Made by a program: the position numbers and the translations under genes. The notes under the pieces are model-generated. The model did no database searches. It was not told the origin of the DNA and worked only from the letters and a program-made list of their open reading frames with translations. Shown here in pieces: positions 11,560 through 60,730 of a stretch of 64,000 bases of DNA. Position 1 is the stretch's first letter. Every line of letters starts with the position of its first letter. The stretch comes from Octopus vulgaris. Lineage: Eukaryota. The stretch is from positions 78,926,001-78,990,000 of the forward strand of contig OX597821.1 in the NCBI GenBank assembly GCA_951406725.2. Direction: 5' to 3'.

Positions 11560-12347
11560 GCTAAAAAGACCATTTCTGACCTTCAGGAACATTGTACGAT
11601 CTAGGACTAACTTATAATTTGCATTTGAGGCTCCGTTTGTGGCTAATGAGCACTCTTGACAAGCATACACGACAGCAAACGTAGCAGAACAAACTTTCCC
11701 CATTCACTACACAGCAGTGCACTTTCGACCAGCACATTAAAGTACTTAATGCAGAATCTGTACTGTCTCAAAAGTGTCGACCCCTCCTTAACCTGCTTCC
11801 TCCATCTTTGGAGATGACAGGCATTGTTCTCCCAGTCAATCTCCTGCATATCACAGGCCTTTAATGAGAACATAGCACAGTCCTTAAGTCGAAGCCTTAG
11901 TTTCTGCCGGGGTCTCTTTCCATTCGCAAGTTCCCCATATAGCATCTGTTTAGGGATCCTGCTATCCTTCACTCTAATAAGATATGCTCAGTCCAATGTA
12001 ACTGGTGCTTATGCACCATCGCCACTCAAGATGTCATTTGTCCTCAGGACCTGTGTATCTGGAGTTTTTAAGGTCCAACCAACATTCAGAATGTGCCTGA
12101 GACATCTCTGGTGAAAGCGTTCAAGGATCATTACATTCTATCTTGGTTGAAAGAACGATTGTGAAAGTGGTAGACGAGTTCGTCTACCTGGGCAGCACAC
12201 TCAGTCGTTCTTGGCCCCTGGATGATGAAATATCTTTCAGGCTGCAGAGAGCAACTAACTCCTTCCGGTTTCTTAATTCTTGTGTTTCGGCTAAACATGG
12301 CATCGCGAAGCAAACAAATATTGCTGTGTACCGAGCATGTGTACTAA
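11560..12347 (-). mobile_element. Old RTE-clade LINE fragment with an inverted 5' segment (mirrored at about 38418-39200)
   Basis: Minus strand: ILERFHQRCLRHIL and RIPKQMLYGEL. Plus strand 12131-12347: VDEFVYLGS...IAVYRACVL. Confidence 0.8.
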
Positions 12348-12426
12348 CACACACACACATACACGCGCACAAATATATGTATTCATATATACATGCATAT
12401 GCATACATATGTATATATATTCAAAT

Positions 12427-12890
12427 ATAATAATAATAATAATAACAATAATAATACTAATAATAATAATTACAGCAATAATAATACTAATAATAACAAC
12501 AATAATATTACTATTAATAATAATAATAACAACAATAATAATACTACTAATAATAATAATAACAAAAATAATACTAATAACAATAATAACAACAACAACA
12601 ACAAAAATAATAATAATAATAACAACAACAATAATATTACTAATAATAATAACAACAATACTACTACTACTACAAATAATAATAATAACAGCAACAAGAA
12701 TAATAATAATATTAATAATAATAATAATAACAACAACAATACTACTACTACTAATAATAATAATAACAACAAGAATACTACTACTACTAATACTAATAAT
12801 AATAATAACAGCAACAAGAATAATAATACTACTACTAATAATAATAATAACAACAATAATAATATTAAGAGTAATCAGAGTAATAATACT
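12427..12890. repeat. Compound (AAT/AAC/ACT)n microsatellite, much longer than its counterpart at about 38006-38090
   Basis: Seen directly. Confidence 0.95.
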
Positions 12891-13257
12891 AGGATGGAAT
12901 TTGTAAACTTTTAAGATAATCCGTATTTCTGGAATGATTACAGCGTAGTCCGTCGTACCCGTGGGCATCCAGTTTATAAGAACCATTGATTCATTTCTTC
13001 AGGTGATACAGCATTAATAGGTAAACCATAGAGGGTTGTCTTTTCTTTTTATCAGTATGAATATTAAGTGCATTAAATATTCCTAACTTCCATCCCAGGG
13101 TTATTCTTCTTATCATTATGCATCGGTATAACTTGATGCAAAACCGTAAACCTATCTAACTAGTCAACATTATTAGACGGTGGCTGGCATAATATAATAG
13201 GAGCTGTATTTGCATATTAAAAGCGTTACCATAAAGAAATGTAATATATATACATAC

Positions 13258-13337
13258 AAATATAAACTTAGATAAACTTAGATGTGTTTCGACCAATGAT
13301 TGGTCCAGGCCATATCTAACTTAATAGCACCACCTGA
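13258..13337 (-). mobile_element. ~80-bp 3' stub of the CR1-like LINE family seen at 45374, 50274 and 59343
   Basis: ccaggccat.tctaacttaatagcaccacctg is shared with those 3' ends. It has a short tandem tail and sits in (TA)n. Confidence 0.75.
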
Positions 13338-13384
13338 TATATACCACCTATATATATACATATATAAAATATATGTATATATAC

Positions 13385-13465
<81 letters not shown>

Positions 13466-13512
13466 GTATATACATATATAATATATATATACATATATAA
13501 TATATATATATA

Positions 13513-13927
13513 GGCGCAGGAGTGGCTGTGTGATAAGTAGCTTGCTAAACAACCACATGGTTCCGGGTTCAGTCCCACTGCGTGGAATCTTGGGCAAGTG
13601 TCTTCTGCTATAGCCCCGGGCCGACCAATGCCTTGTGAGTGGATTTGGTAGACGGAAACTGAAAGAAGCCTGTCGTATATATGTATATATATATATGTGT
13701 GTGTATATGTTTGTGTGTCTGTGTTTGTCCCCCTAGCATTGCTTGACAACCGATGCTGGTGTGTTTACGTCCCCGTCACTTAGCGGTTCGGCAAAAGAGA
13801 CCGCTAGAATAAGTACTGGGCTTACAAAGAATAAGTCCCGGGGTCGATTTGCTCGACTAAAGGCGGTGCTCCAGCATGGCCGCAGTCAAATGGCTGAAAC
13901 AAGTAAAAGAGTAAAAGAGTAAAAGAG
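13513..13927 (+). mobile_element. Full-length tRNA-derived SINE (CORE-like domain, internal microsatellite, LINE-derived tail)
   Basis: A box tggctgtgtga, B box ggttcagtccc, ttgggcaagtg, internal (TA)(TG), tail ggcggtgctccagcatggccgcag...(gtaaaaga)n. Confidence 0.88.
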
Positions 13928-14103
13928 ATACATATATATGAGTGTGTGTGATTGTGTATAGAAGAATATATTAATAAAAGGAATTCCAACCTTGTCTGAT
14001 TTTCACGTTTTATTTACAATCTTACAATGATATATTATAAGATAATATATTATAATAAAATAAAATAAAATAAAATAGTAGAATGTTAAAGGATCATTCT
14101 GAT

Positions 14104-14148
14104 TGAACTAGTAATTTCATGCATTAAATCCTGCAATCTTCGGGTTCA
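14104..14148 (-). ncRNA. Degenerate minimal hammerhead-ribozyme-like motif
   Basis: Minus strand: UGAAC CCGAAGA U UGCA ggauuuaa UGCA U GAAA uuac UA GUUCA. The core has U4>C. Confidence 0.45.
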
Positions 14149-14175
14149 TGTAGTAGTGGTGACAGTCATGCTTCA

Positions 14176-14490
<315 letters not shown>

Positions 14491-14715
14491 CAAATTGAAT
14501 GATGGTGGTATTTTAAAGTGTCTGAATATCGAAATATTCGATTAGAATACCTTCATGAATGTTCATGACTATGTGACTCCCTGAAAGTTTGAGCTTTTCT
14601 TTTCCTTTTATTTTGGCTCAAAATCACTTCCCTTTAATTCCTCGGTGACTCCTCTATTTATTGACTGAACATTTGATAAATTTTCTTCCTCAATTGATTT
14701 TACATTTATTTGTAG

Positions 14716-15106
14716 TTGTTGGTTGTCGGAGATACCATTCTATGCTGCTTTCCTGGCTCCCGTCGTGACTATTCTCATCTTCAACATTATCATGTTTTTC
14801 TCGTTATCTTGCGTCTTATCGCAATGCAAAATAACAAGCTGCTTCAACACGAAACCAGAAGACTACGTTTTCTTGGAATATTTGGTTTGTTTTTCCTGTT
14901 CGGATTATCTTGGGTCTTTGCATTCTTCGCTGTTGGGGAAGCAGCAGAAGTGTTTCAGATTCTTTTCGTTACCTTCAGTGCCTTTCAAGGAACGTTTATC
15001 TTCTTATTCTACTGTATATACAAGAAAGATACCAGAGACATCATCTGCTCGTGTATATGTAAACAAAAGAAAGAGAAAGCCAGTAAAGTTTTAAGAACCT
15101 ATAAAA
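14716..15106 (+). pseudogene. Adhesion GPCR copy L, TM5-TM7 exon with a 1-bp deletion (T5 at 14795-14799)
   Basis: CWLSEIPFYAAFLAPV..., then LFGLSWVFAFF...FQGTFIFLFYC in a shifted frame. 391 nt versus 392 nt in the other copy. Confidence 0.85.
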
Positions 15107-15441
15107 GTAAGTGCAATTTGATCTTTCTTATTCTTACTACTCCCACAACCAGGGTCAATATGTTGTAATGGGTCTAATCACAAACACCACTTCTACCAAT
15201 ACAACCAATGTCAACGTCATCGCTCTTAGGACTGGAGAGACATCGTAATAAATACCAACTGCATTCTTGTCATCATCATCATCATCTGCATATATGCATG
15301 TATTTATTTACTTATGTATGTACGTACGCATGTGTGCATGTATGTATGTACGTATGTATATATATAAGTATGTATACACAAATATATATGTATATAGGTA
15401 CATATATCTATATATATATACATACATAAAGAGACGTAAGA

Positions 15442-15750
15442 AGGCGCGTAGCTTCGGAGTTAGGGCATTCAGCTACGATCGTAAAGTCCTGAGCTCGATC
15501 ACTAACGGTGCATTTTGATCTTGAGCAAGACACTCTATTTCCTGTTGCCCCAGTTCAATCAGCTGGCATAAGTGAGCTGTACCTGCATTTCAAAGGGGCC
15601 AGCCTTGCCACATCTGTGTCATACTGAATCGCCTTGATAACTACGTTCAGGTTACGTTTGCCTGTGCAGTGCTCACCCATCTGTGCGTTAGTTTCACGAG
15701 CAGTCTTTTCCGTTGATCGAATCAACTGGGACTCTTTTCGTTGTAACCGT
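15442..15750 (+). mobile_element. Old tRNA-derived SINE (mirrored at about 36270-36579)
   Basis: Head ggcgcgtagcttcggagttaggg...gagctcgatc with a cttgagcaagacact CORE-like motif. Confidence 0.6.
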
Positions 15751-16301
15751 TGCGAGACAAAGACAGAGAAAAGAAGAGGGGGATAGACAGTGAAGTGAGT
15801 TAGATGGATTGAGAGATCGTTGTGAAATCTATATGCCGCCACAGAGAGATCCTTGTGAAATTTACACAGTGGCAAAGATAGACTTATGTAAACTTTACAT
15901 ATTACTACAGATCAATGTGAAGTCTAAACACAAACATAAATAGGACCATGTAACACACGGCCACAGATGGATCTACGTAAAGCATACATCCACACAATAG
16001 AACTAAGAAGTCTCTCATATTTTCCCTCTCAAGTTGTCCAGTTGTTCTGGAAGATATTCCTGAACCAATATTGCCAATATTTTACGACATAGTCCTGATA
16101 ATTATATTCTCGCCATTAGTTTCTGTAATTAATGTTTTCAATATAAATTGTGTTGGTCATCCATGATTCATCCATGTAATAATATCTTAACGTATGGGAA
16201 AACAGTGGATGACAACTGGGGTTACATAAAAAATATAAGGGCTAGGGATATTTTACTTTGAAAATAAATATTTTATATAAGTTTTCTCATTGTGTTTTCA
16301 G

Positions 16302-16336
16302 GCTCTGGTGATGGAACAGCAGAAATGAACACATAA
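16302..16336 (+). pseudogene. Adhesion GPCR copy L, predicted terminal coding exon (SSGDGTAEMNT*)
   Basis: Polypyrimidine tract plus ttttcag acceptor. Phase matches the previous exon; ends in TAA. Confidence 0.6.
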
Positions 16337-17799
16337 ATAGAAACGTTAAAACAAACGTCTGTGAATTGACAGAAAAGACATTGATGAGAATAATAACGAG
16401 GATAATCCACAAAATATATAACTTATTTCGGATTATATGAATTAAAACATGATGGATATATAAAGATTTGCAAATTGACATTCCCCTTAACCATCAAATC
16501 ATGAATGGATCAACTGAAAGAAATGACAAAATTATATAAAGTAGAAAAACCTAGCGGAAATCCCGCAGGTGTCGCTACCGAGCATAATTACATATAAACA
16601 ACTTATTAAATTCATACTGTTCCTTCCAAAAATATAATCCTTTTTAACATAAGAGGTCCAGTAATTAAAAAAGGGCTCAATATATATTTTCTTTCATTAA
16701 TAACTATTGTTTAAATTAAAACACACATAGGCACATCATTAATGAAAACAATTTATTCAGACTTTACCGGGTTAAAATATAATTTATTTTACTCCCTATC
16801 ACTTACTACCGTATCTACGGTACCTTATTGCAATTGTAAGTAAAATTATATTTCCTGGGGCTAAATATTTAAATAAAAATAATACTGTTTATTTAATATA
16901 AACAGAAAACATTATTGTCAGTAAAATTTTTCTCCTTTCAAATGAAGTTTCTGGAATATGACACCAAACGTAAGAAGGAACGTATAATTTATATAAAGAT
17001 ATAGATTTGATAAACAACACGATCACCATTATGATGGGACTAATACAGCAACATCACAAAAGAATATATATAGATACATGAATAAATGTGTATAACATTC
17101 AGGATACATATATTTGTATAATCTATGATGGTGTGAGGAAACATTTTCTTTTATAGTTTGTGTCTATATGCATTTCTAGCATAATAAATATAATGTTATC
17201 ACTGATACATGAAAATACATTTCTCATCTATTTATACAATGACAAACATATTAATATCGTATTTTCCTCGCTCAGGAAATATCTTAGATGGGATGTATAT
17301 CTTACTATAGTTGACCTTATGTCCGTCCGTCTGTCCGTGACCATTTCACGGCCAAACGACTGATTAAACTTGCACGAAGGTTAACAGTCTTACTAAGGAC
17401 GTCTCGAGAATGGTTTGTATCATGTTTAAAATGTTTTATTGGAAACACTAGCCACACTGCTTCGATTCGGACGAAACTAAGGAAGCCATTTCCGTATCTC
17501 TTATTATAAAATGCAGATTTTATCTGCCTCCCTTTGTATCTTATAGAAATCTACAATATAGGATTTCTTCAATTACAATTTACCTAGCATTTTTAAGAGT
17601 AGAATGCATCGGGTCGTGCCAGGTCCACTTTTTAAAATTTCAACCCCAATTAAGCAACATTTAGAGAAAACTCACATTGTGGTGTATATGTCAAATGTTT
17701 TTCTTAGTGTGGGATACAGCACACGCAAACGCACACACACACAAACGGAGCGAACTGTTTCACTGACGCTATCACCCTTCTCCTCCTTTGTCTTTGCAA

Positions 17800-27779: not shown

Positions 27780-29040
27780 TGAGTCTTCATGTTTATGTGT
27801 GTCCTTATCCTACGATCGCAGCCTGGCACAGTGTTGCTTTGTTTATGTCTCTATAAAGCAAATTTTAGCTATACGTAGCAGAAGAATAAGGACAGAATAC
27901 AAATAAATAAATAAACAGATCCAGTTAACCCTACGGAAACGCTTCAAAGCGATGCCCCAGCATGGCCACAATCCAATGAATGAAAAAAATCCAAGATAAA
28001 AAGCACAGAACCCATTCTGTAAAGTGGTTGATGTTGGGAATGGTATCTAACCAGGAATAGGGGAACAAAACAGACTTTTTTTGTGCAGTCCTTGGATCCT
28101 GTCCGGCATATGCCAGAAAGGAACAGGGATGTATGTATGTTAGATGATGATGACAATGATGACGATGTGAATTACTCTGTTAATGATGAGATTCAAGGAA
28201 ATGACGAACATTATTGTAAGCAATTTAAAAATTGTTTTATATATGATTACATATATATATATATATACATAGTGTCTGCGTGTTAAGAAGCTTGCTAACG
28301 AACCACATGGTTCCGTGTTCAGTACCACTGCGTGGCACCTTGGGCGTGTGTAACTTAGCGGTTCGACAAAAGAAGTCCGATAGCATAAGTACGAGACTTA
28401 CCAAGAATATATCGTGGGGTCGATTTGCATCACTAAAGGCGGACCTCCAGCTTGGCTACAGTTAAATGACTGAAATAATTAAAAGAGTAGAGAGTAAAGA
28501 TTATATATATTTATATATATATTTATATATATGTATGTGTGTGTGTGTGTGTGTGTGTGTTTGGTAATAGATTAATAAATTGATTACATATTTCTTTTGT
28601 TATTTCATCAGAGCTTTCTTCGTCCAACAAATTCCTATATAATGAAGATCTATCTACACTATGTGAAGTCTATATATATATATATATATATATAGAAAGT
28701 TTTGCAAATTTACGAAATTCCTCGCTACCTCTAAGAAAATCTAAATACATACATAATGAAACATTCTTTAATGTTTCAGTCTTTTGACTGCGGCCATCCT
28801 GGGGCAACGCCTCAAAGGTTTCTTTTTTTTATGGGAAAATATCAGCCGAATGTCTTGCTCTTTGTAAGTGTTATCATACACCCCCCCACACACACACATA
28901 TGTATATATATGTAGGCGCAGGAGTGAGTGTGTGCTATATAGCTTGCTTACCATCCACATGTTTCCGGGTTTAGTCCCACTACGTGGCACCTTGGGCAAG
29001 TGTCTTCTACCATAGGATCGGGCCGACTAAAGCCTTGAGG
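27780..29040 (+). mobile_element. Cluster of degenerate SINE fragments (about 27790-28000, 28272-28500, 28915-29040)
   Basis: Recognisable pieces of the 13513 family (ccacatggttccg, cgtggcaccttgggc, ccccagcatggcc). Confidence 0.7.
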
Positions 29041-30409
29041 CCATCATATCATGAGTATTGTTATCAAGTTCCAACGATGATTTAATCAATTAAATGATGA
29101 TGATGCTGATTATGATGATGACGATGATTGTTTATCACCACATTGCACTGTTACGTCGCTCTTTATGCACTAAAATTCCAATACATTGTAGTTGGCGAGA
29201 CGTACAAGGCAGTGGCAGATTGTTAAATTATGTTCTAAATGTTAAGTCAAGTGAAACAGAAACATTCCATTGGTCTTAAAATAGTCACCAATCCTCTTTT
29301 CAAACTATTTCACACAACTTTTGCTCTCTCTCTAATAAAAGTTAGCATTATTCAACATTTTGATATTGCTGACGCAAGAAATCACGCACGCACATATACA
29401 TTCGTAATACATACGTGCATATATACGTGCATACACACATATATACATACATGAAGCCACAGAATGGTAGATGTAGTAGACATCCATAAGAAGGAGTACA
29501 CGAGGAATGTCCCAGTGAAAGCACTAATAAAAGGTAAACATAATAGACCGGACACTTCAGAGACAGAGAAGAGTATACGTGTACAGGTGTGAAACTCAAC
29601 TGAGCAGCGCATCTTAGCATAAAACTAAAGCTCAGCGAAAACGAAAATACCTACATTAAACTATTGTGATATGCAATTATGGGGGCATTGAGATAAGTAA
29701 CACACAGCCTAATCTTTATAAATTGGCTTCTTATAACCAGAAAGGAGAAAGCGGTTTCGAAAATTACAGACAAGCCATGACGGGAACTGTTAAAATCTAA
29801 AACCTTCCAGAAATTTAATCATTTTAGTGAACAGGCACATGTCTTGATATGTAACTATATGCATGCATGAGAATACATACATAAAACAATATATACACAT
29901 CTGCACCTATAGTGATTTCAAATACTGTGCATATACACATACGCTGGCAAAAATACTCCGTTGATGCTGAAATTCCAATGAATTTCGATCTAGGTTAGAA
30001 TCCTGTTCGCCCTCTACTGGCAAAAAATGTTGAAATAAAACTCAATAATCACATAAATAAAAAACATACATGATATACATACATTCTAGTATGAATATAT
30101 TCATACATGCATTCATTCACGAGATATGTGCGTATTTAATCCTTTGTATATTTTTATAATTAATGCTTTCGGCTGATATATTGAACACCGAGGTAAGATA
30201 TTTCATTAGTTTCTTACAGATTTTCAAACGTCTCCTGTACTCTGCATCACCTTCTAGCCAACTCTGCCGCGAGTATTAACACCTCCAGCCTTGAAGAAGC
30301 CTTGTCTCCCTCGGAAATAGGGATGCCGACAGGAAAGGCATCCGTGTGTAGAATATCTGGATACTGAACTCATTTCGGCTATGCAATTATGAATTAGTGG
30401 TCGTTATAA

Positions 30410-30424
30410 TAATGATGATGTTGT

Positions 30425-30490
<66 letters not shown>
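30410..30490. repeat. (GAT)n microsatellite
   Basis: Seen directly. Confidence 0.95.
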
Positions 30491-30491
<1 letters not shown>

Positions 30492-30624
30492 TGAAAGTGA
30501 ATTCTGTTCGTGATTGAACCCTACTACGTATTCTACGTTTCACTTTTGCCGAACTGCTACCTTATGTTTATACATACATACATACATACAGACAGACAGA
30601 CACTGATTAATACACATACACATA

Positions 30625-30790
30625 ACACAGGCATGGCTGTGTGGTAAGAAACCTTAGTCCCAACCACATGGTTTCTGATTCAGTCTCACTACGCAGCACC
30701 CTGGTTAAGTGTCTTCTCCCATAGCCTCGAACCGACCAAAGCCTTGTGAGTGGATTTGACAGACGGAACCTGAAAGAGACCTTAGTGTGA
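30625..30790 (+). mobile_element. SINE 5' half (13513 family)
   Basis: tggctgtgtggtaag...gccttgtgagtggatttg followed by (TA)n. Confidence 0.8.
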
Positions 30791-30852
<62 letters not shown>

Positions 30853-30928
30853 ATGAATATGATACTTAAGTTAGATGCTCTAGAATTTTGTATGGTGTTA
30901 TCCATATAAATCCATGGGGTGATTATAA

Positions 30929-31074
30929 TCAAAATAAGCAACAAGAATAACTATTATTGGCTGATGATTGCTCAACATTCTGAAACTGTTGTAATACTTA
31001 CAACATTTAATAAAATGATGTAGCGTGAAACGATCGTGCCAAATTACCGAAGTTATTCTTGTTGCTTATTTTGA
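30929..31074 (+). ncRNA. Hammerhead-ribozyme motif enclosed by a perfect 24-bp inverted repeat
   Basis: IR arms 30929-30952 and 31051-31074. Inside: UUGG CUGAUGA [long stem II] GAAA CGAUCG UG CCAA. Confidence 0.65.
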
Positions 31075-31094
31075 ATATATATATATACATATTA

Positions 31095-31229
31095 CTAGCA
31101 TAGGCACCCGGTGTTCCCTTATATACTGGAAGAAAAACGCAAAATATTTTGTATAGAAATTTGTTATTTTTAATTCAATTTATTCTTCAGTTGGAAAATC
31201 AGGTATGAATTCATAATCTAAAAACAGGA

Positions 31230-31297
<68 letters not shown>

Positions 31298-33000
31298 TAG
31301 TAATAAAAGCAAATTTTAAAAATTATCACTTTTATAACGTGAGGTAAATTCTATCGCATATGTTGAAGGAAATTATGTAACAGCTTCTGTGTGAACAGCA
31401 TTCTTTGTTTTCCGGTTTGGAGCAATGACAAATAAGTCTTGCAAACTACCAAACTTGGAGCAATTAACATAAAGTTGACCATGAGAAAAGCAAGGCTCAA
31501 TTAAGAGCAAGCCAGTAGATTTTAAAGTCTGACTTGGAGCTTTTTAATAAACATTGCAAAGCAAATTTGCACTGGGAATTGTGTTCGTTTGAACTCAAAT
31601 GGCATGTCTGTTGGTTTGATTGGAATCCTTGAAATGAAAATCTTTTCCATTGAGGCACATCGAGTGATGATAGTAGCTTCAATCAAATTAGGTGTTAATG
31701 CCTTCGCAATCAACCTTGTCCCATTGCATAATTTAGGAGGATCTAAATTACTTAGAAACACTACTATGATTCCTATCTTCAGAAAAAGTTTATGAAGAGT
31801 TCCAGGTGACTCAAGAGATTTAAGGATCTCTGTTGTGTAATTTGGGCAGCTTGATTTTCATCAGGCACTGAATCAATTGATTTACACACCTTAATAACTG
31901 TTGGAATCTTATTCAATAATTCATAGTTAATCCTTATTAGTGTCTCATCTTTTGGAGCATGAATTGCCCTTTCACACAACCATTTATGTGAATTATAATT
32001 ATTATTTAAGATTGGAAATACCCTGTTCTTCAGTTCATCTGGGAAATTCACCAAGATAGTAATATGAGCCAAATTGTACTTTCCCATTTCCTACTTCGAG
32101 GAGCCATATTGTAAACTGTTCTGCAAACTGGTCTCCATGTAATAACGCTCGCACGATATTACAAAAGTAGAATTCCAAGGGTGTGAAGAATTAATACATG
32201 ATTATATTTCATCAGATCTTGTTAATCTCGACATGACTGGCAATGTCTCTCTGAAGTCTCCTGATAAAACTAATATAACTCTTCCCATAGATTCATTGTT
32301 ACCTCATATCCTGCAAGGCCCTAATCAAGAGTTTATATTACACATCTATGGGACATAGTGCATTCATCCCAAATGACCCGGTGACTTTGGCGCAACGCTT
32401 CTGAACCTAAAACTTTGCTTATGTTATAAATTGGTCATTTGTGATCAGGTTTTGCGGTAATTTAAAAGCGAAATGAGCTGTTCGTTCTCCTGGCAGCAAT
32501 ACTAGATGAAGCTATAACAACTACAATTCATTTTGTTGCCTTACTTTGGAGAGAAGCAATGTTGTTACAAATGTTTTACCTGTGGCACTAGGAGCATCAA
32601 TAAAGAAAATTCCTCCCCTTTTTTTCCCTGACTGACGAAATAATTTTATCGTATGGACAACGAGGAGAAATTTAGGTTCATGTTCATCAACAACTGCAGC
32701 TAACTCTGTTATGTCATAATTTGCCTAGCTTGCTATGTTCTTTTTAAGTTAAAACATATTCTTACGAGTTTTTGTCTCCCCTGGCCAAAATTTGATCTTC
32801 AATTTGAACCAGTGACTCATTAAAAGTTGTTTCAGAGAACTGAATATTGATATCTGAGTTTGCTTGTTGAACTGCACACTTTAGGTTTTCAGTCATGGCC
32901 TCACGATACTTCATCTAAAACTGTAGGGGGACTGCCAAGTTGACACACGTTCAGAATAGTTGCAAAATGCGGTTGTTATTACAATGCATTGTTGTGCCAT
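31095..33000 (-). mobile_element. Degenerate Helitron (PIF1 helicase remnant, 3' CTAG at 31095-31098)
   Basis: GIFFIDAPSATGKTF (Walker A), WLCERAI.APK, NLDPPKLCNGTRL, QFPVQICFAM and SHGQLYV. Confidence 0.85.
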
Positions 33001-33429
33001 TCAAACCATATTAATTTTTACAAACAATACACAATGCTTCAAGCGAAATACAATACTCTCCTATCTCTACGTCTGGGCCAGGCCGAGTTGGCAACCGTTG
33101 GGAAGTATGATTAAATTTCAAGTTATTATAGTCCATTGTTGTGCCATTCAAAACATATATATATATACATATATGCATATATATATATATACATATATGC
33201 ATATATATTCATGTGTGTCTCTGTGTTTGTTTCCCCATCATCGCTTCACAACAGATATTGGTGTGTTTTCGTAACCTAGCGGTTCGGCAAAAGAGAGCGA
33301 TAGAATAAGTACTAGTCCTACAAGGAATAAGACTTACAGTCAGTTTCTTTGACCAAAACTCCTTAAGGCGGTACCCCAGCATGGCCACTGAAAATAACTG
33401 AACCAAATAAAAGAATAAAAGAAATACAT

Positions 33430-34074
33430 GAAGACAGACTCATTGCTGTTGGAAAAAGTAACTTGGGTAAACATAAATGCACTTAAAGAGGAGAGAAGTC
33501 ATAGCAGTGTGAAAACTGCGATGCATCATTTCTTAGAAATAGTACGTATGTAATCACACAAGAGAAAAGCCTCATCATTTTGTTATGTGTCTCTCTCAAA
33601 ATAGCGTTCTGTCTGTGATAAATCATTCTCTGTAAGAAGTCATTTAAATAAGCATAAATTCATTCATCGGAGAGCGAAATCATACCATTGTGATATCTGT
33701 GACAAATCGTTCTTTAGAAGCTGTGGCCTAAGTAAACACAAGTGCACTCATACAGGGGAAAGGGTATGTCGATGTAAAATTTGTGGTAAATCATTCTAGC
33801 AAATGACTAATTTAACTATTCTTAAAGGCATTCATACAGGAGACCATATCACTATGACGTTTGTGGTAAATCGTTGTCATCGAGTAGTAAAATAGCTATG
33901 CATATCTATACAGGCTCAGGAGTGGCTGTGTAGTAAGTAGCTTGCTTGCCAACCACATGGTTCTGGGTTCAGTCCCACTGCGTGGCACCTTGGCCAAGTG
34001 TCTTCTACTATGGCTTCGGGCCGACCAAAGCCTTGTGAGTGGATTTGGTAGACGGAAACTGAAAGAAGCCTGTC

Positions 34075-34500: not shown

Positions 34501-35683
34501 ATCGTGGAATATCATTAAAAATAACAATTAACTATACTTGTATCTATTTATACAGATGAGTTACTGTATCAATGTAAATTATCATTTGATGAAAGAAATG
34601 TTATCCAGACAGGAAAGAAGATATAACTGTGGGTCAAACAAACGCTGTACACTTTATTTCATATAAACATATAGATATTTACATTGGTAACATTGCTTCC
34701 CATTGTGGTATTTTCAATTGGAAATTGTTCTTTCATAATGTTCATAAACATTCCATCTAAGATATGTCCTAGGTGAAGAAAAGTCATTATTGATATGTTC
34801 ATCATTGTGTGTAAAGGGACGAGAAAGGTTTTTCCATGTATCAGTGATAACATTATGGTTATTATACTGGTAATATAAAAATACGCAAACTATAAAAGAA
34901 AATGTTTCCTCACATTATCATATATTATACAAACATACGTATCATGAATGATACACGTTTTTTCATGTATCTATGTATATTCTGTAATAATATTTACTGT
35001 ATGTGTCCCATCATATTGGTGATCGTGTTGTTAGTCAAATCTATATATTCATATGATTATACCTTCCTTCCTAATTACATTTAGTGCCATCCTCCAGAGT
35101 CTTCATTTAAAAGGAAAAACATTTTACTTATAATAACGTTTTCTTTTGTATTAAATAAGCAGTATTATTTAATTTAAATATTTCGCTCCAGATATATTCT
35201 TTTATTCACAAATGCAATAAGGTATCGTGGGTATGGGTGTAAGTGAAAGGAAATAAAATAAATGATACTTTAACCTGAGAAAATCTGAATAAGTTGTTTC
35301 ATTAATTATGCTCCTATGTGTATTTTAATTTAAGCAATAGTTATTAATGAAAGAAAATATATATTGATCCCTTTTAATTACTGGGTCTCTTATGCTAAAA
35401 AGGATTATATTTTTGGAAGGGACAGTATGAATATAATAAGTTGTGAAGCCTGCAGAATTTCCGATAGGTTTTGCTATTTTATATAATTTTGCCATTTCTT
35501 TCAGCTGAGCCAAGCATGATTTGATGGGTGGTAAGGGGGATTTTATTTGCTGATCTTTATATGACCTTCATGTTTTTATTCATATAATCCGAAATAAGTG
35601 ATTTATTTTGTGGATTATCCTCGTTATTATTCTCATCAATGTCTTTTCTGTCAATTTACAGACGTTTGTTTTAACGTTTCTAT

Positions 35684-35718
35684 TTATGTGTTCATTTCTG
35701 CTGTTTCATCACCAGAGC
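35684..35718 (-). CDS. Adhesion GPCR copy R, predicted terminal coding exon (SSGDETAEMNT*)
   Basis: ttttcag acceptor, compatible phase, TAA stop. Confidence 0.6.
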
Positions 35719-36913
35719 CTGAAAACACAAAGAGAAAACTTATATAAAATATTTATTTTCAAAGTAAAATATCCCTAGCCCTTATATTTTTTATGTAACC
35801 CCAGTTGTCATCCACTGTTTTCCCATACGTTAAGATATTATTACATGGATAAATCATGGATGACCAACACAATTTATATTGAAAACATTAATTACAGAAA
35901 CTAATGGCGAGAATTTAATTATCAGGACTATGTCGTAAAATATTGGCAATATTGGTTCAGGAATATCTTCCAGAACAACTGGACAACTTGAGAGGGAAAA
36001 TATGAGAGACTTCTTAGTTCTATTGTGTGGATGTATGCTTTACGTAGATCCATCTGTGGCCGTGTGTTACATGGTCCTATTTATGTTTGTGTTTAGACTT
36101 CACATTGATCTGTAGTAATATGTAAAGTTTACATAAGTCTATCTTTGCCACTGTGTAAATTTCACAAGGATCTCTCTGTGGCGGCATATAGATTTCACAA
36201 CGATCTCTCAATCCATCTAACTCACTTCACTGTCTCTCCCCCTCTTCTTTTCTCTGTCTTTGTCTCGCAACGGTTACAACGAAAAGAGTCCCAGTTGATT
36301 CGATCAACGGAAAAGACTGCTCGTGAAACTAACGCACAGATGGGTGAGCACTGCAAAGGCAAACGTAACCTGAACGTAGTTATCAAGGCGATTCAGTATG
36401 ACACAGATGTGGCAAGGCTGGCCCCTTTGAAATGCAGGTACAACTCACTTATGCCAGCTGATTGGACTGGGGCAGCATGAAATATAGTGTCTTGCTCAAT
36501 ATCAAAATGCACCGTTAGAGATCGAGCTCAGGACTTTACGATCGTAGCTGAATGCCCTAACTCCGAAGCTACGCGCCTTCTTACGTCTCTTTATGTATGT
36601 ATATATATATAGATATATGTACCTATATACCTATATATTTGTGTATACATACTTATATATATACATACGTACATACATACATGCACACATGCGTACGTAC
36701 ATACATAAGTAAATAAATACATGCATATATGCAGATGATGATGATGATGACAAGAATGCAGTTGGTATTTATTACGATGTCTCTCCAGTCCTAAGAGCGA
36801 TGACGTTGACATTGGTTGTATTGGTAGAAGTGGTGTTTGTGATTAGACCCATTACAACATATTGACCCTGGTTGTGGGAGTAGTAAGAATAAGAAAGATC
36901 AAATTGCACTTAC

Positions 36914-37305
36914 TTTTATAGGTTCTTAAAACTTTACTGGCTTTCTCTTTCTTTTGTTTACATATACACGAGCAGATGATGTCTCTGGTATCTTTCTTGT
37001 ATATACAGTAGAATAAGAAGATAAACGTTCCTTGAAAGGCACTGAAGGTAACGAAAAGAATCTGAAACACTTCTGCTGCTTCCCCAACAGCGAAGAATGC
37101 AAAGACCCAAGATAATCCGAACAGGAAAAACAAACCAAATATTCCAAGAAAACGTAGTCTTCTGGTTTCGTGTTGAAGCAGCTTGTTATTTTGCATTGCG
37201 ATAAGACGCAAGATAACGAGAAAAAACATGATAACGTTGAAGATGAGAATAGTCCCGACGGGAGCCAGGAAAGCAGCATAGAATGGTATCTCCGACAACC
37301 AGCAA
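36914..37305 (-). CDS. Adhesion GPCR copy R, TM5-TM7 exon (intact)
   Basis: 392 nt, AG/GT boundaries. CWLSEIPFYAAFLAPV...LFGLSWVFAFF...FSAFQGTFIFLFYC. Confidence 0.9.
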
Positions 37306-37530
37306 CTACAAATAAATGTAAAATCAATTGAGGAAGAAAATTTATCAAATGTTCAGTCAATAAATAGAGGAGTCGCCGAGGAATTAAAGGGAAGTGATTT
37401 TGAGCCAAAATAAAAGGAAAGGAAAAGCTCAAACTTTCAGGGAGTCACATAGTCATGTACATTCATTAAGGTATTCTAATCGAATATTTCGATATTCAGA
37501 CACTTTAAAACACCACCATCATTCATTTTG

Positions 37531-37569
<39 letters not shown>

Positions 37570-38145
37570 ACGTATATATATATATATAATATATGTGTAT
37601 ATATATATATGTATATATGTATGTATGTATGTATGTGTGTATGTATATATATTACATTTCTTTATGGTAACGCTTTTAATATGCAAATACAGCTCCTATT
37701 ATATTATCCCAGCCACCGTCTAATAATACTGACTAGTAAGCTAGGTTTACGGTTTTGCATCAAGTTATACCGATGCATAATAATAATAAGAATAATCCTA
37801 GGATGGAAGTTATGACTATTTAATGCACTTAATATTCATACTGGTAAAAAGAAAAGACAACCCTCTATGGTTTACCTATTAATGTTGTATCACTTGAAGA
37901 AATGAATCAATGGTTCTTATAAACTGGATGCCCACGGGTACTACGGACTACGCTGTAATCATTCCAGAAATACGGATTATATTAAATGTTTACAAATTCC
38001 ATCCTAGTTTATTATTACTCTTATTATTCTTAATATTATCATTATTATTATTATTATTATTATTATTGTTGTTGTTATTATTATTATTATATTTGAATAT
38101 ATATACATATGTATGCATATGCATGTATATATGCATACTTATATG

Positions 38146-38378
38146 TGTTTCTTTACTACCCACAAGGGGCCACACACAGAGGGGACAAACAAGGACAGAC
38201 AAACGGATCAAGTCGATTACATCGACCCCAGTGTGTAACTGGTACTTATTTAATCGACCCCGAAAGGATGAAAGGCAAAGTCGACCTCGGCGGAATTTGA
38301 ACTCAGAACGTAGCGGCAGACGAAATACGGCTACGCATTTCGCCCAGCGTGCTAACGTTTCTTCCAGCTCGCCGCCTT
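38146..38378 (-). mobile_element. Full-length tRNA-derived SINE present in the right arm only, with a ~20-bp TSD
   Basis: Head aaggcggcgagctgg, B box gagttcaaattcc. Flanked by tatatgcatac(t/a)tatatgtg and absent at about 12380-12395. Confidence 0.88.
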
Positions 38379-39235
38379 ATATGCATACATATATGTGTGC
38401 ATGTGTCTGTGTGTGTGTTAGTACACATGCTCGGTACACAGCAATATTTGTTTGCTTCGCGATGCCATGTTTAGCCGAAACACAAGAATTAAGAAACCGG
38501 AAGGAGTTAGTTGCTCTCTGCAGCCTGAAAGATATTTCATCATCCAGGGGCCAAGAACGGCTGAGTGTGCTGCCCAGGTAGACGAACTTGTCTACCACTT
38601 TCACAATTGTTCCTTCAACCAAGATAGAATGTAATGATCCTTGAACGCTTTCACCAGAGATGTCTCAGGCACATTCTGAATGTTGGCTGGACCTTAAAAA
38701 CTCCATACACACAGGTCCTGAGGACAAATGGTATCTTGAATGGCGATGATGCATAAGCACCAGTTACATTGGACTGAGCATCTTATTAGAGTGAAGGATA
38801 GCAGGATCCCTAAACAGATGCTATATGGGGAACTTGCGAATGGAAAGAGACCCCGGCAGTAACTGAGGCTGCGATTTAAAGACTGTGTCATGTTCTCATT
38901 AAAGGCATGTAGTATGCAGGAGACTGACTGGGAGAACAATGCCTGTCATCTCCAAAGATGGAGGAAGCATGTTAAGGAGGGGTCGAAACTTTTGAGACAG
39001 CACAGATTCTGCATTAAGCACTTTAGCGTGCTGATCGAAAGTGCACTGCTGTGTAGTGAATGGGGAAAGTTTGTTCTGCTACGTTTGCTGTCGTGTATGC
39101 TTGTCAAGAGTGCTCATTAGCCACAAACGGAGCCTCAAATGCAAATTATAAGTTAGTCCTAGGTCGTATAATGTTCCTGAAGGTCAGAAATGGTCTTTTT
39201 TAGCTCAGGAGTGGAGGGCCATCAAGTATATATCT

Positions 39236-45373: not shown

Positions 45374-47330
45374 CTTAGAATAACTTAGAATAACTTAGAA
45401 AGGTTTTTGGCCAGTATTGGCCCAGGCCATGTCTAACTTAATAGCACCACCTGGCGAAGTCTTTCAGTTCAGGATTTGGGCACCAAGGCCCATTCGAGCA
45501 GAGAGTTATTGTTTGCGGAGACATATCCGGGTGTGGATGGTTTGTCCGGTACTGTTTGAAAGAATTTGTCCAAAGACTTCTTGAATTTTGTGTGGTCAGT
45601 TTCTTTTTTGACGTGTCCTGGTGTAATGTTGAAGAGAGCGGGTCCAATTGAGGTGAAATAGTTGTGCCGTATTGTCGTTATGTGATGCGATTTAGATTTT
45701 TGTTGTGGACGGATGGCACGTGGTCCAAGCCTTGGATGCATTTTGAAGGTGATGCCAACATCATTCGGACAGTGCTGATGGAATATTTTCCACATCATAC
45801 AGATAATGTAGCGTTCACGGCGTCGTTGGAGTGAATACAATTTCAGCTTCTCTAGTCTACCCCAGTAGTCAAGGTCTGACATGCCATCTATCTTTTTTGT
45901 GATTGACCTTTGGGGAGCTTCAATTCTCATAATATTTTGTTTTGTGTAGGGAGACCACAGTGGACAGCAGTATTCAAGGTGGGGTCGGGCAAAAGTGGAG
46001 AAGAGAAGGATAATAGCGTGGGAATCTCTCGACTGGAAGGTTCTGAGAATCCAGGAACACATTCTGCGGGCCATGTCAACTTTGCTGCTTATATGTGTAG
46101 CCCAGCTTATGTTGTTGTCCACTGTTACTCCCAGGTCTCTGATGTTGTTGGATGCCATGAGAATTTCTCCAGAAGGAAGAGAGTATGGGAGTTTCAGAGC
46201 GTCCTCCCTTCCAAAGTGGATCAGTTCGAATTTGTCTTCATTTAGCAACATGTTATTCTTTTCCGCCCATTGGACAACAGCCAGTATGTCTGACTGAAGG
46301 TTTATTCGGTCATCCACGCCATTGATGACCTTCTGGAGCTTGGAATCATCAGCGAAGGTTCTGATGTTGCTGTGTTTGATGGTGTCAGTAATATCATTTA
46401 TGTAGATGATGAAGAGAAGTGGGCCCAACACAGTGCCTTGTGGGACACCACTGCTGACTTTGGCTGGGCTGGATTTGACTCCTTCGACTACAACATGTTG
46501 GGTTCTGTTAGAGAGGAAGCACTTGATCCATTGCAGCAGCTTTCCAGTGACACCAATATTGGACAGCTTTCTCAGAAGGATCTTATGATCAACCCTGTCA
46601 AAGGCCTTGCTGAAATCAAGGTAGATGACATCAGTGTTGGAACCCTCTCCCAAGGCTCTCAAAATGTCATCAAAATGATGCAGTAGCTGCGTCAGGCAAT
46701 CTCTCCCATTACGGAATCCATGCTGGTTGGGGTTCAGCATATTATGACTCTCAAGGAAGTGAGTCATACGCGATCTCAGCACCCTCTCAAATACCTTGAT
46801 GATATGAGAGGTGAGTGAGATTGGACGGTAATTCACGGCAAGCGATTTGTTTCCTTTTTTGAAAACTGGGACAACAGACTGGGATAGAAGGTCTTCTGGT
46901 ATATATCCAGCATCCAATGAGTTCCGCCACAGATTGGCTAGAGGGGGTGCAAGTTGGTTTTGACACATCTTCAAGACACAAGCAGGGAACCTATCGGGAC
47001 CTACTGCTGAATTATGCTTCATTTCCTTTATTGCTGCTAAGACATCAGGAGCGCCAAATGTTATGTCCGATAAAGTGTATTGGGGAGTAACATCACTGAT
47101 ACAGCCCAGATCAGTCATATCAGGATTGCTGAAAACAGAGCAATATTGTTTCTGCAATATTTCTCCCATGGTTTTGGCATTGTCTTGAAGAATACCATTT
47201 TCATCAATCAGAGGGCCAACAGTAGAACCAGTGACTCTGTGTTTTTTTGCAAATGAAAAGAACACTTTGGGATTGAGTTTGATCTTCTCAATGGCCCAGG
47301 CCTCTTCAGCTCTTCGCTGACTATTGATGA
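45374..47330 (-). mobile_element. 5'-truncated CR1-like LINE with an open 598-aa RT ORF
   Basis: NYRPISLTS, YLDFSKAFD, GVPQGTVLGP, FADDSK and [11 protein letters not shown]. Tandem tail (ttagaataac)n on the + strand. Confidence 0.92.
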
Positions 47331-50273
<2,943 letters not shown>

Positions 50274-51287
50274 TACTTTGATACTTTGATACTTTGATAG
50301 GTTTCGGCCATTATTGGCCCAGGCCATGTCTAACTTAATAGCACCACCTGGTGAAGTCTTTCAAGTCAGAATTTGGGCACTATGGCCCACTCAAGTAGAG
50401 AGTTATTGTTTACAGAGACATATCCGGGTGTAGGGGGTTTATCCGGGATTTCTTGAAGGAATCTGTCCAAAGACTTCTTGAACCCTATAGGGTCAGTTTC
50501 TGTTTTAATGTGTTTTGGTGTAATGTTAAAGAGAGCGGGGCCAATTGAGGTGAAATAATTGTGCCGTATTGTTGTTATGAGATGAGAGTGCGATTTTTGT
50601 TTTGGGCGGATGGCACGGGGCCCAAGCCTTGGATGTACCTTAAAGGTGATGCCAACATCATTTGGGCAATGCTGATGGAATATTTTCCACATCATGCAGA
50701 TGATGTAGCGCTCACGACGACGTTGGAGAGAATAGAGTTTTAGCTTTTCTAGTCGACCCCAATAGTCGAGGCCTGTCATGCCATCTATCTTTTTTGTGAT
50801 TGCCCTTTGAGGTGCTTCGACTTTTATGATACCTTGTATTGTGTGGGGAGACCACAGTGGACAACAGTATTCAAGGTGGGGTCGGGCAAAAGTGGAGAAG
50901 AGAAGGATAATGGTGTGGATATCTCTCGACTGGAAAGTTCTGAGAATCCAGGAACACATTCTGCGGGCCATGTCAACTTTGGTGTTTATATGAGTGGCCC
51001 AGCTTACGTTGTTGTCCACAATTACTCCCAAGTCTCTGATGTTGTTGGACGCCGCGAGAGTTTCACCTGAAGGAAGGGAGTATGGGAGTTTCAGGGCATC
51101 CTCTTTTCCAAAGTGGATTAGCTCAAATTTATCCTCGTTCAGCAGCATATTGTTTTTTTCTGCCCATTGGATAACAGCCAGTAGATCTGACTGAAGGCAT
51201 GTCCGGTCACTCGCCTCATTTATGACCTTCTGTAGCTTGGAGTCATCTGCAAAGATTTTTATGTTGCTGTGCTTGATGATGTCATTA
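50274..51287 (-). mobile_element. 5'-truncated CR1-like LINE, near-identical to 59343-60481
   Basis: 260-aa RT C-terminus; tail (tactttga)n on the + strand. Confidence 0.92.
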
Positions 51288-51294
51288 TATCTAA

Positions 51295-52735
<1,441 letters not shown>

Positions 52736-52820
52736 TGATTGATTGATTGATTCTAGTTTCAGCTTATGAGCTGTGGCCATGCTGGGGCACCGCCATTTGG
52801 TGTTGCTACTTGGTTTCACT

Positions 52821-55800
52821 TCATGGAGGCTTTCTAGCAACTGCTATTTGGTGCATGAGAGAGTTCGATGCAGCTGCCCTCATCTGCCCCTCCTGCCGTG
52901 AAGTTGGTTCATCTGGGACACCTGACAGGAAGAGATCCAGCTTCATTTTAAAGACATCTGTATCCACCCCATGCAGGTCTCTCAGGTTCTTCGGGAGGAT
53001 ATTGAAGAGCTGTGGGCCTCGGAAGCCCAGGCTATCACAGAATCTTGTCCTACATCTTGATGGCAGGTTTGGAGTCCTAGGCACCACGCAGTGGCGCCCA
53101 GTTCTGGCATTTGCGTAACTCTCGATGCCAAAGTTCAGGACACTTCCCTCCAGGATCTTCCAGATGTATATTATGGCATATCTTTCCCGCCTACGCTCCA
53201 GAGAATATAATTTTAATCTCTTGAGTCTTTCCCAGTAGCTTACATTCTGCATAGAGGCTATCTTCTTTGTGTAGCTTCGTTGGATCGCCTCAAGTTCTGT
53301 GATCAACTTGACACTGGATGGTGACCATAGCTGAGAGCAATAGTCAAAGTGGCTTAGGACAAGTGTCTTCCAGAGGACCATCATGGTTTTTGTTCTCTTG
53401 TTCTAAAGGTTCTAAGAATCCATCCAGCCAGCCGTCTACATTTCATTGCCAGTTTAGCAACATGTACATGAAAGGTCGCGTCATCACTCATGTGAATACC
53501 TAGGTCACGCACTGATTGTGCCTCTGGGATTGCAATCCCTCCGGGTCCAGTGTATTCATTGGGTATTGCATTCAGTTTTGCATGCTGATAGTATAAAGCT
53601 TGAAACTTTCCAGCATTGAACTGCATGCTATTCTTTTCAGCCCACTTGTATATTTCGTCCAGCTCACATTGCAGGTGTTTAGTGTCCTCAGGGTTCTGTA
53701 TTGCCTGTGAAACTTTTGTATCATCTGCATAACTTGTGATCGTGGCTCTCTGCGTGGCTGAGGGCATGTCTGAGAGGGCCATTATGAACAGTAGTGGTCC
53801 CAGAACAGTGCCCTGCGGAACACCGCTCACTATTTGTGTGTTAATGGAGGTGGCCCCATTGGCTACTACCACCTGACTTCTATCCTTCAGAAAGTCATGA
53901 AGCCATTCTCCCAGTTTTCCAACTATGTTGAGATCACGCAGTTTGTGACATATCATTCCATGATCGACTTTATCAAAGGCCTTTGCAAAGTCGAGATATA
54001 TCACTTCCACATTTGAGTGGTTGAGCAGCCGTTTCAGCACCCAGTCATAGTGTTGTAGGAGCTGAGTTAAACAGCTTCTCCCTGGTCGGAAACCATGTTT
54101 GGTGTCGGGCAGCAAGTCATTCTCTTCAAGGAAGGTGATGAGTTTCCTTCTGACTATTCGTTCCATGACCTTGCTGATGTGTGAGGTCAGAGAGATAGGT
54201 CTATAGTTCTTGGCTTCCGCTCTGCTACCTCCTTTATGAATGGGGCATATTTTACCTTCCTTCAGTTTTCCTGGAAGTTTGCCAGCTGCAAGGAAGCTCT
54301 GAAAGAGGAACTGCAGTGGTCTTGCTAGGACTCTCTTACATGCTTTTAGGAGGATTGCCGGGAATCCATCGGGGCCAGTAGCTGAGTCTGTTTTCATTTC
54401 ATCTATAGCCTTGGTTACATCGTCTTCCTTTATATCGATGTAATCTATCGTCGCCGCCTCTGATTTTATATCTGCAGTGGTAAAAAAGTCAGTTGGATTG
54501 GTGATTTGGAGATGCCCAAGGGGTGGAGTGAAAACACTCTTGAATTGCTCATTCAGTATTTCACTTACCCTCATTGGTTTTCCTGTAAGTGTGCCATCCT
54601 TTTCGAGGAGTGGCCCTATTCTACAGTGCACTGTAGCTGTTTCTTTGGCATACCTGTAGAAAGCTCTGGGGTTAGATTTTATGTTTTCTATAGCCCAGGC
54701 TTCTTTGTCTGCTCTTTCTTTTTCATGGGAGAGTTGCAGACATTTTTCGATTTCCAACAGTTTTATTTTTAGGCGGGACTTTTCACTGCTTTCAATCTGT
54801 TTGTTTAGGCGATTTGAAAATTTCGTACGCCGTCTCATTAAAATTTTCCTCTCTCTGGGGATTTTGTTCTTGTGTACAGTGGCCTTTCTCTCTGGGACAC
54901 ATTTGTAGCATATGGCTTGCATTACAGACATGAATTGTTGAAGTTTCACGTCGATGTCTGGCGAGGAGAGACATTTAGGCCAGTTTTGTTTGAGGATCTC
55001 TTTCTCAATTTGTTTCCAGTTTGCCTTATGGTAGTTCAAGCTGGAAAGATTTTGAGGGTTTCTTGTAGGCTGCATGTCCGTGCTCTCTTTTGGCCCGTAC
55101 ATGGTCAGCTCTATCATGTTGTGATCCGAGAGTAGTGTCGGTGTCACTTTCACATTATGGATGAGATCCATGTCATTTGTGAAGCAGAGATCCAGTGTGT
55201 TACCTGCCCTGGTTGGTTGGAGTATTACCTGCTCCATGTACAGGGTGTTGATGAGGTTCAGGAGGGACCTCGCCTGTCCTCGTTCACATCTTGTCATTCC
55301 TGGGAGAGAAAGGCCCTCGGGCCATCTGACATTGGGCAGATTGAAGTCTCCCATAAGAAGCACACCTATGTGTTGTTCTAATGTGGTTAGAATTTCTTCT
55401 ATTTTTATAAGGCAGTCTTCAAACTTGCCCACATGGCTTGGGGCATCTGGAGGGCGATATGTAGCACACACAACTACATCAAGTTGCCTAATATGTACAA
55501 TTAGTGTGTCACACACCGAGTTTGAGTATGACAAGAGGACCTGGGGTGTGAGGTCCTCACGGATGTACATAGCAACACCTCCATGACTCCTTTCTTTCCT
55601 GTCGGTCCGTAGTACAGCATACTGTGGTATGTGTAACTCCGCATCTGCTATGTCCGGTTTCAGGTGCGTTTCTGTAAGTGCTATGCATAAGGCTTGATTG
55701 CATGCAACAAAGTCTCTCAGGAACGGGATCTTTGTCCTGTTACTGAGTGTTTGCAGTCCTCTGATGTTCAGTAGGAGTATCGAGGTGAGGTGTACGTTGT

Positions 55801-56128
55801 TGCCGGCGGTGTCCATCCTGTGTCTGTTTGCTGTGGTGGTCTGGTATATAGTGGGTAGTCCCACCTGCGGGCTTGGGTTTGATGAAGCCAGGTCAGCTGC
55901 TGTACAATCTTTTGTGCCATGCACAAAAAGATTGTTGCTCAGCAGCTGCTCTTTCGACAACATCATGTTGGCTGTTTGTGGCGCGCACAACATCTGCGTA
56001 CCTCCGCTTTGGGGCAGGTGGTGCGTGGTCCATCCCTTTTCTTTGTGTTGATGGTTTGTCCATCTGCCTCGTGTCTCTGTGGCAGGGTCCCCGATGTGCA
56101 AAGCGGCAGCCTGCACCTTCCTTTCCAT
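52821..56128 (-). CDS. LINE ORF2: AP endonuclease plus reverse transcriptase, single frameshift near 53385
   Basis: LNIRGL, LTETHL, GGVAMY, YRPP, GDFN, SDH (APE); LDFAKAFD, GVPQGTVLGP, YADD (RT). 915 aa plus 187 aa in two frames. Confidence 0.92.
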
Positions 56129-56678: not shown

Positions 56679-56739
56679 GCTGGATAATCCGTCTATCCGT
56701 TTATCTATCTAATTATGTTCGAGAGAAGACAGGAAGATA

Positions 56740-57890: not shown

Positions 57891-58335
57891 ATTATATCGA
57901 GAACAGATATTGAAAATGTAAACAAACAAAATGACGATCGCAACTTTAACTAAGATGTGGGCCTAAGTGAAAGATAAAATAGAATAATAAATAAAATATG
58001 AAATAGATGAAATTGATACTTAATCCAACAATGTGGTCTGGATTATTTTTTTTGGTTTACGGGATTTTTTTCAGGAGAGATGCTTCTTTTTTCTTTCTTG
58101 CAGGAGATAACTTGATTCAGTTATTTTTGCACCATGTGCGTTTCGGCGAAAATGAAAATTACTGTGTATATGTATATATTTATATATATATTTTTTAAAA
58201 TATTTTAAAACCAAAGTGTTGTAGTGATCTCTATGACTTAGAGTTTTACGTTTTGCAACTACAGTGGGTTATTTCGCCGTTCTATGCAAACTTTTTCACA
58301 GAGCAAAGGCAATCACGTCTTTCTCTGCTATCGGT

Positions 58336-59342
<1,007 letters not shown>

Positions 59343-59345
<3 letters not shown>

Positions 59346-60481: not shown

Positions 60482-60730
60482 ATCTATATATATCTATATA
60501 TATCTATATATATATCTATATATATCTATATATATATCTATATATATATCTATATATATATCTATATATATATCTATATCTATATATATATCTATATATA
60601 TATCTATATATATATATCTATATATATATCTATATATATATCTATATATATATCTATATATATCTATATATATATCTATATATATCTATATATATATATC
60701 TATATATATCTATATATATCTATATATATA

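Follow-up and report, generated by a model that had tools for sequence, protein, structure and literature searches.

A 226-bp insertion of two opposed hammerhead-family pieces between TA runs in Octopus vulgaris, likely made by a Penelope-like enzyme

Inspection of the 64-kb window (the whole stretch of Octopus vulgaris DNA that was analysed) revealed a 226-bp insertion at 30849-31074 that is flanked on both sides by TA runs. A 55-nt (TA)n microsatellite at 30794-30848 lies to the left of the likely target site, and a 12-nt (AT)6 run at 31075-31086 lies to its right. The insertion consists of two arms in opposite orientation. The left arm (30849-30952, minus strand) corresponds to the 3′ part of a repeat family that is present in contigs of four organisms, and its outer end is situated 112 nt past hammerhead stem I (the long end). 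The right arm (30951-31074, plus strand) is a 5′-truncated piece of the same family that contains the hammerhead itself and terminates 32 nt past stem I (the short end). The two arms meet head-to-head at 30951-30952 through a 2-nt microhomology common to both, and loose ends of contigs were found before 30951 and behind 30952. An 80-nt extension, or tail (30849-30928, minus strand), is present in the left arm only, and summed depth across its bins in run X1 ranged from 32,000 to 517,000. Both outer ends of the insertion are family 3′ ends that face the TA runs, and TTTGA precedes each run when read in the family sense. TA-rich loose ends were also observed in contigs at other truncation points of the family.

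The original prediction described the interior of this insertion as a rod-folding element of 146 nt with inverted repeats as its two ends, lying between (TA)n tracts. A pair of 24-nt arms is indeed present, the copy at 30929-30952 (minus strand) being the exact reverse complement of that at 31051-31074 (plus strand), and pairing extends neither inward nor outward. This pair is the sole non-microsatellite perfect inverted repeat of at least 20 bp with arms no more than 500 bp apart in the window, and nothing comparable was obtained in any of 30 block shuffles. The TA runs do flank the insertion, but the left arm of the pair is separated from its TA run by the 80 family bases at 30849-30928, and the arms proved to be the overlap of two opposed family pieces rather than the boundaries of an element.

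Two further repeats adjoin the insertion. A SINE-like repeat at 30627-30795, of which the window contains four further copies that are 77-80% identical, enters the left (TA)n target with its tail. On the right, a broken helicase remnant (31093-33130, minus strand), which we take to be of Helitron type, has a CTAG 3′ end that lies ∼20 bp beyond position 31074, where the insertion ends. This remnant probably inserted independently into the same AT-rich site.

The right arm contains both cores of a type I hammerhead, CUGANGA and GAAA, and its helices I, II, and III follow the type I arrangement. Stem I is formed by UUGG at 30957-30960 (pair probabilities 0.61-1.0) and CCAA at 31039-31042 (assigned by folding). 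The catalytic core comprises CUGAUGA at 30961-30967 and GAAA at 31027-31030, and the cleavage triplet GUG occupies 31036-31038. All of these lie on the plus strand, exactly where they had been predicted. The conservation of CUGAUGA was seen in one loose end only, which belongs to the second subfamily described below, and GAAA showed no variant at 3% of depth or more in two DNA runs. The long stem II anticipated at ∼59 nt was measured at 59 nt (30968-31026, plus strand); in the predicted fold it has U·U at its base, a pair of helices, an internal loop rich in A and U, and, at 30987-31005, an apical hairpin of 8 bp. The closing mismatch of the domain is thus U·U (30968/31026), and a second mismatch, A·A, occurs at 30975/31018. 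A palindromic, dimer-type stem III had also been expected, and an 8-nt palindrome is found at 31030-31037 (plus strand). It gives a 2-bp helix III in the monomer and a predicted 8-bp helix between two copies, with a predicted homoduplex energy of −10.0 kcal/mol. Such a self-pairing palindrome fits the dimer model that Cervera and de la Pena set out in the accessible part of PMC4209133.

A search with a type I hammerhead descriptor returned one locus in the window, compared with a mean of 0.01 in 100 dinucleotide shuffles. Helices I and II were well predicted by folding and gain further support from covariation between subfamilies, and the pair probability of helix III in the monomer was 0.0. 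The active-like monomer had an energy of −10.5 kcal/mol, 8.7 kcal/mol above the minimum of −19.2 kcal/mol. The covariance-model scan that had been suggested failed to recover the motif: no hammerhead was present among the 40 Rfam matches at 28000-34000 with E values up to 10, likely because of the long stem II. The suggested folding check gave a mixed outcome. The 146-nt stretch as a whole folded strongly (−49.8 kcal/mol, z −8.8), but the interior alone scored z −2.5, and the arms therefore supply most of the fold signal. RNA in the family order had an ordinary fold, with z −0.82 and 59 of 300 shuffles folding as well, which argues against a rod-like fold as a property of the element.

The stretch 30849-31100 (252 nt) was compared with one DNA-type run from each of four organisms, which yielded 1,796, 1,598, 1,169, and 576 matching contigs. 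The family is thus dispersed and high-copy, with many copies. Summed depth, which is no copy number, rose to several hundred thousand, and single long pieces stood at 24-147 in the two deepest runs. Family cover reaches 30849, where the (TA)n begins, 80 bases to the left of the element noted originally. Parts of the stretch were present in 20 listed runs from 10 studies and four organisms, none of them with half of it. Within the window there is no second family copy. The table of joints shows that the family has undergone many private deletions and one local duplication. In run X11, one low-depth contig joined 30948 to 30849, with 30 other letters past the long end and then the family again, which hints that the unit may continue past 30849 or form partial tandems. 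Two family patterns gave no match in viral, prokaryote, and metagenome collections. Likewise, no published description of the hammerhead family, or of the editing of a Penelope-like element (PLE) hammerhead, was found in the open-access literature, to which that search was confined.

No run contains the head-to-head junction (best share of words, 0.44), which is thus known from the present assembly alone, and no junction-spanning contig occurred among the 32 longest pieces listed (of 5,207). Depth in run X1 was ∼1,400 at 30953-30957 compared with 37,000 at 30958-30962, and cover drops at 30952/30953. Contigs that follow the left arm run, behind 30948-30952, into the reverse complement of the 3′ side of the hammerhead, and contigs that enter the hammerhead from upstream have a different AT-rich sequence before 30951. 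It follows from these continuations that the family order is upstream sequence, hammerhead, 24 nt, and then 80 more nt. The 24-bp inverted repeat is a product of the junction at the locus (30849-31074) and no feature of the family.

Variants at 31024-31026 that account for 33-43% of depth mark a second subfamily. Its 5′ side, seen in a loose end of 6 contigs (agreement 0.92), has a G-C closure of stem II and an A-U pair where the locus has G-C; we infer this pairing, since the two sides come from different contigs. The apical hairpin showed no two-sided change, two common variants keeping a wobble pair and one breaking a pair.

According to the accessible text of PMC3138052, hammerheads need an NUH triplet, and GUG is not cut. 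The copy at this locus, with its GUG, departs from NUH. Seven rows of loose ends behind 30948-30952 cover the triplet; five were legible at the third base, all with A, and two were too mixed, these rows being among the 24 of 260 loose-end rows listed, with a possible bias toward reads unlike the locus copy. The three cleanest rows (24 contigs, agreement 0.88-0.89) read GUA, and the cleanest one that identifies a subfamily belongs to the second. The reads end at 31065, and the variant tables are blind to 31038 and to 30957-30981. The family is likely to carry an NUH triplet, and the GUG copy at this locus, already suspected of being inactive, would likely not cut and is predicted to be dead. 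The locus copy also has private substitutions at 30879, 30881, and 30982, where >99% of depth differs; because of these changes and the GUG triplet, it is likely both old and dead. An alternative short hammerhead that uses GAAAC at 30982 was rejected, as its G is private (99% of depth reads A) and no stem I was visible by eye. The high-copy contigs, the compensatory changes, and A at the third base of the triplet in the legible rows agree with those family checks of the original prediction that concern multiple copies, covariation, and a GUH triplet.

The same prediction had tied the motif to Penelope-like elements or retrozymes, a link that is supported by hammerhead features of the Hydra-clade type and by the PLE layout of the insertion. 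As far as the accessible text and supplement of Craig et al. (2021, PMC8557442) go, the locus resembles Hydra-clade PLEs in its type I hammerhead near the 3′ end and its (TA)n target, (TA)n insertion being found in nearly all families of the clade. Other common features are a U after the core, UGC as the first bases of stem II, as well as a U before GAAA. The ends lie at similar distances past stem I, where the clade consensus sequences end at 25-42 nt in 10 of 24 families, at 58-148 nt in 13 of 24, and at 350 in one. Stem I matches the xUGG/CCAx form of several Hydra magnipapillata families, and Penelope-13_HM also has an inverted 5′-truncated copy. The hammerhead near the 3′ end has a clade-typical closure, the comparison being confined to the Hydra clade: in the supplement, stem II closes with U·U, as at the locus, in 14 of 25 families and with G-C, as in the second subfamily, in 3 of 25. 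G at the cut base is found in 0 of 25.

By contrast, the stem II domain of 59 nt is unlike that of the 24 of 24 Hydra-clade families tallied, in which the loops measure 3-10 nt. The 59-nt arm is atypical for the clade because loop 2 there is 3-10 nt; the table tallied also lists two elements from spike moss whose loops are ∼30 nt long (PMC8557442). Helix III is an 8-nt perfect palindrome here, whereas a 9-nt form is commoner in the clade, and the hammerhead differs from that of Hydra-1_Obim. Five words from the hammerhead family had no sequence match in the accessible part of the PMC8557442 supplement. Furthermore, U·U closure is no proof of the Hydra clade, because the axolotl retrozyme HHR_Amex2 also has U·U at the base of stem II (PMC7229834).

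Animal non-LTR retrozymes (Cervera and de la Pena 2020, PMC7229834; Li et al. 2026, 10.64898/2026.07.22.740005), as presented in the accessible parts of both papers, likewise have a high-copy, AT-rich type I hammerhead in which a palindromic tetraloop caps a helix III of 2 bp. Unlike non-LTR retrozymes, the locus is a sub-monomer in a head-to-head insertion with no tandem array, and its stem II is much longer. Non-LTR retrozymes have been proposed in both papers to derive from PLE end repeats, and Li et al. argue that retrozymes derive from PLEs. For the putative parent, two identities are nearly evenly balanced, with a slight lean toward the second: an autonomous PLE, of which the family would be the 3′ end, or a retrozyme that is protein-free and relies on PLE enzymes; 30 letters of the upstream family sequence are visible.

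The window also contains an open, 5′-truncated PLE frame (62024-63718, minus strand) with RT and GIY-YIG-type regions, and Hydra-type enzymes therefore exist in the genome. By eye, its protein has long words in common with Hydra-1_Amil, Hydra-2_Amil, and Hydra-1_Obim, and its linker is without one cysteine of the clade motif. Pfam returned 0 families for this protein, and a search of viral and prokaryote contigs gave no match. At ∼1.1 kb past the PLE stop codon, a distance longer than the clade norm, lies a second hammerhead-like motif with a GUA triplet (60912-60955, minus strand; core 60946). Its stems I and III are like those of Hydra-2_aMil, its stem II is very short with A·A at the base, and it ends 33 nt before a (TA)n run.

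No sequence link between the window PLE and the hammerhead family passed a test. A Hydra-clade PLE would carry, upstream of its hammerhead, an RT frame with a C-terminal GIY-YIG region that has no CCHH; within the 30 visible upstream letters, no RT, endonuclease, or other protein-coding frame was tied to the family. A likeness between the tails of the locus hammerhead and the 60946 motif was rejected, as 388 of 5,000 shuffles and 568 of 18,276 real 37-mers scored as well, and a 13-nt tail word matched nothing in the window other than the two arms. A 10-nt word common to the upstream sequence of the family and the PLE 3′ untranslated region occurs twice in the window compared with 0.17 expected. 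This word was chosen after the fact, one occurrence is in an unrelated LINE, and it may be a weak hint of a link between family and PLE.

Microsatellites of the TA, AAT, and ATG types abound in the window, as do broken LINEs, and one SINE occurs there at least five times. RT-bearing LINE frames at 45469-60493 are broken by long (TA)n tracts, and LINE pieces at 50366 and 59427 have near-identical translations. An inverted segmental duplication (∼12000-16500 and 35518-38764, 93-97% identity) includes a frame that by eye resembles the last transmembrane helices of a receptor.

Taken together, it is likely that the two opposed family pieces at 30849-31074 came to lie head-to-head between TA runs when a (TA)n site was cut and a PLE enzyme, probably of the Hydra clade, reverse-transcribed a single RNA at each of the two ends. 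A GIY-YIG endonuclease would cut both strands of the TA tract, and each 3′ end would prime reverse transcription at its own internal site, one 32 nt and the other 112 nt downstream of stem I. Synthesis of the two cDNAs would stop after 124 and 104 nt, and they would be joined via the 2-nt microhomology. The long-end cDNA would pass the short-end start site by 24 nt, and these 24 nt would for that reason be present twice, in inverted orientation. Since helix III is predicted to be stable only between two copies, cutting by a GUA hammerhead in the parent RNA would take place mainly in dimers.

Several published properties of PLEs, as given in the accessible text of the papers cited, are consistent with this model. 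An inverted 5′-truncated copy with a one-sided tail is the standard PLE layout (PMC8557442; PMC3846280), and the locus has an inverted 5′-truncated copy with the 80-nt extension at one end only; against this, the tail measures 80 nt here, whereas the papers give 30-40 bp. With a purified PLE protein, both strands of AT-rich DNA are cut and then extended, synthesis begins at two sites within the RNA that delimit the tail, and RNA with a mutated hammerhead is still inserted (PMC11167929). For the Poseidon element PAc of Anolis (Frangieh et al. 2024, PMC11167929), two-strand cutting and two internal starts would give a short and a long end such as those seen here. However, PAc is of a different clade, its tail is 30-40 nt where that of the locus is 80, and it starts in the coding region without target homology, whereas the locus ends abut TA-like words, maybe by chance. 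LINE-1 twin priming (PMC9148063) is similar in that two target strands prime on one RNA to give an inverted segment, but LINE-1 primes at its poly(A) tail, whereas the locus is without poly(A) and both starts appear internal. The two-start-site reading concerns one locus, for which the compared family sequence runs from 30849 to 31065.

Other origins of the inverted arrangement were considered. The family might be PLE-linked and the inversion might have arisen after insertion, by template switching or repair in a direct copy, or as an assembly chimera. The absence of the junction from every public run checked is in keeping with such an origin, as are the frequent rearrangements of the family (private deletions and a local duplication) and the identity of the two arms in a copy with several private substitutions (30879, 30881, and 30982). 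At ∼2% divergence, however, identity at 48 positions is nothing unusual (a hand calculation gives roughly 0.4). A chimera of the fold-back type would mirror far more than 24 nt, which counts against an assembly chimera. Given also that a family 3′ end faces a TA run on either side of the insertion, with TTTGA before each run, and that the published PLE layout is matched (PMC8557442; PMC3846280), a later inversion or chimera appears unlikely.

A self-contained 146-nt element, a viroid-like RNA in which pairing of the 24-bp terminal arms encloses the hammerhead in a rod, would account for the strong fold of the stretch (−49.8 kcal/mol, z −8.8), and a transcript through the locus would form a rod. 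This stability nevertheless comes from the arms (z −2.5 for the interior, z −0.8 in family order), and other copies are without the left arm beside the hammerhead. In addition, the descriptor search returned no minus-strand hammerhead, and the two family patterns were absent from the viral, prokaryote, and metagenome collections, so that very little likelihood attaches to such an element. A MITE, meaning a non-autonomous DNA transposon that has terminal inverted repeats of 24 bp, a TA target, and hammerhead-like words arising by chance, would likewise show TA-rich flanks, a small size, and perfect inverted repeats at its ends. This identity is scarcely credible: the repeat family extends 80 nt beyond the left arm, that arm is flanked by family sequence instead of a target duplication, conservation of the hammerhead core goes along with compensatory changes in the stems, and the terminal repeats are not shared, the junction being unbridged in 32 of the 32 longest pieces listed.

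In run X13, A-to-G changes on the ribozyme strand were present at 31014, 31015, 31022, 31028, and 31030 at 9-21% of depth, and at ∼0.1% or less at the same five sites in two DNA runs. Two of the five are catalytic core bases. None of these changes was seen in run X7, which like X13 is only guessed to be RNA. The X13 signal comes from one or two contigs and is only a lead; the contigs of X7 and X13 (31 and 24, respectively) were not counted as evidence of expression. The locus copy differences at 30982 and 31038 are, on the ribozyme strand, both A-to-G. These changes would be explained if the family were a Hydra-clade-derived, protein-free retrozyme whose long stem II is targeted by a host A-to-I editing enzyme, with editing of the core switching the ribozyme off and dead copies being reverse-transcribed from edited RNA. 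We regard this as distinctly improbable; if true, the host would control a retroelement by rewriting its ribozyme core.

By itself, the locus is of little weight, being one decayed copy of a common repeat in which the rod is a by-product of insertion. The 59-nt stem II and the two differently closed subfamilies offer a natural test of how a long arm and a U·U closure affect cutting. If made as proposed, the locus is a clean, minimal record of a Penelope-type insertion, with two ends, one junction, and a 24-nt overlap in 226 bp, and its geometry matches the two-start-site mechanism that was shown in vitro for one element in 2024.
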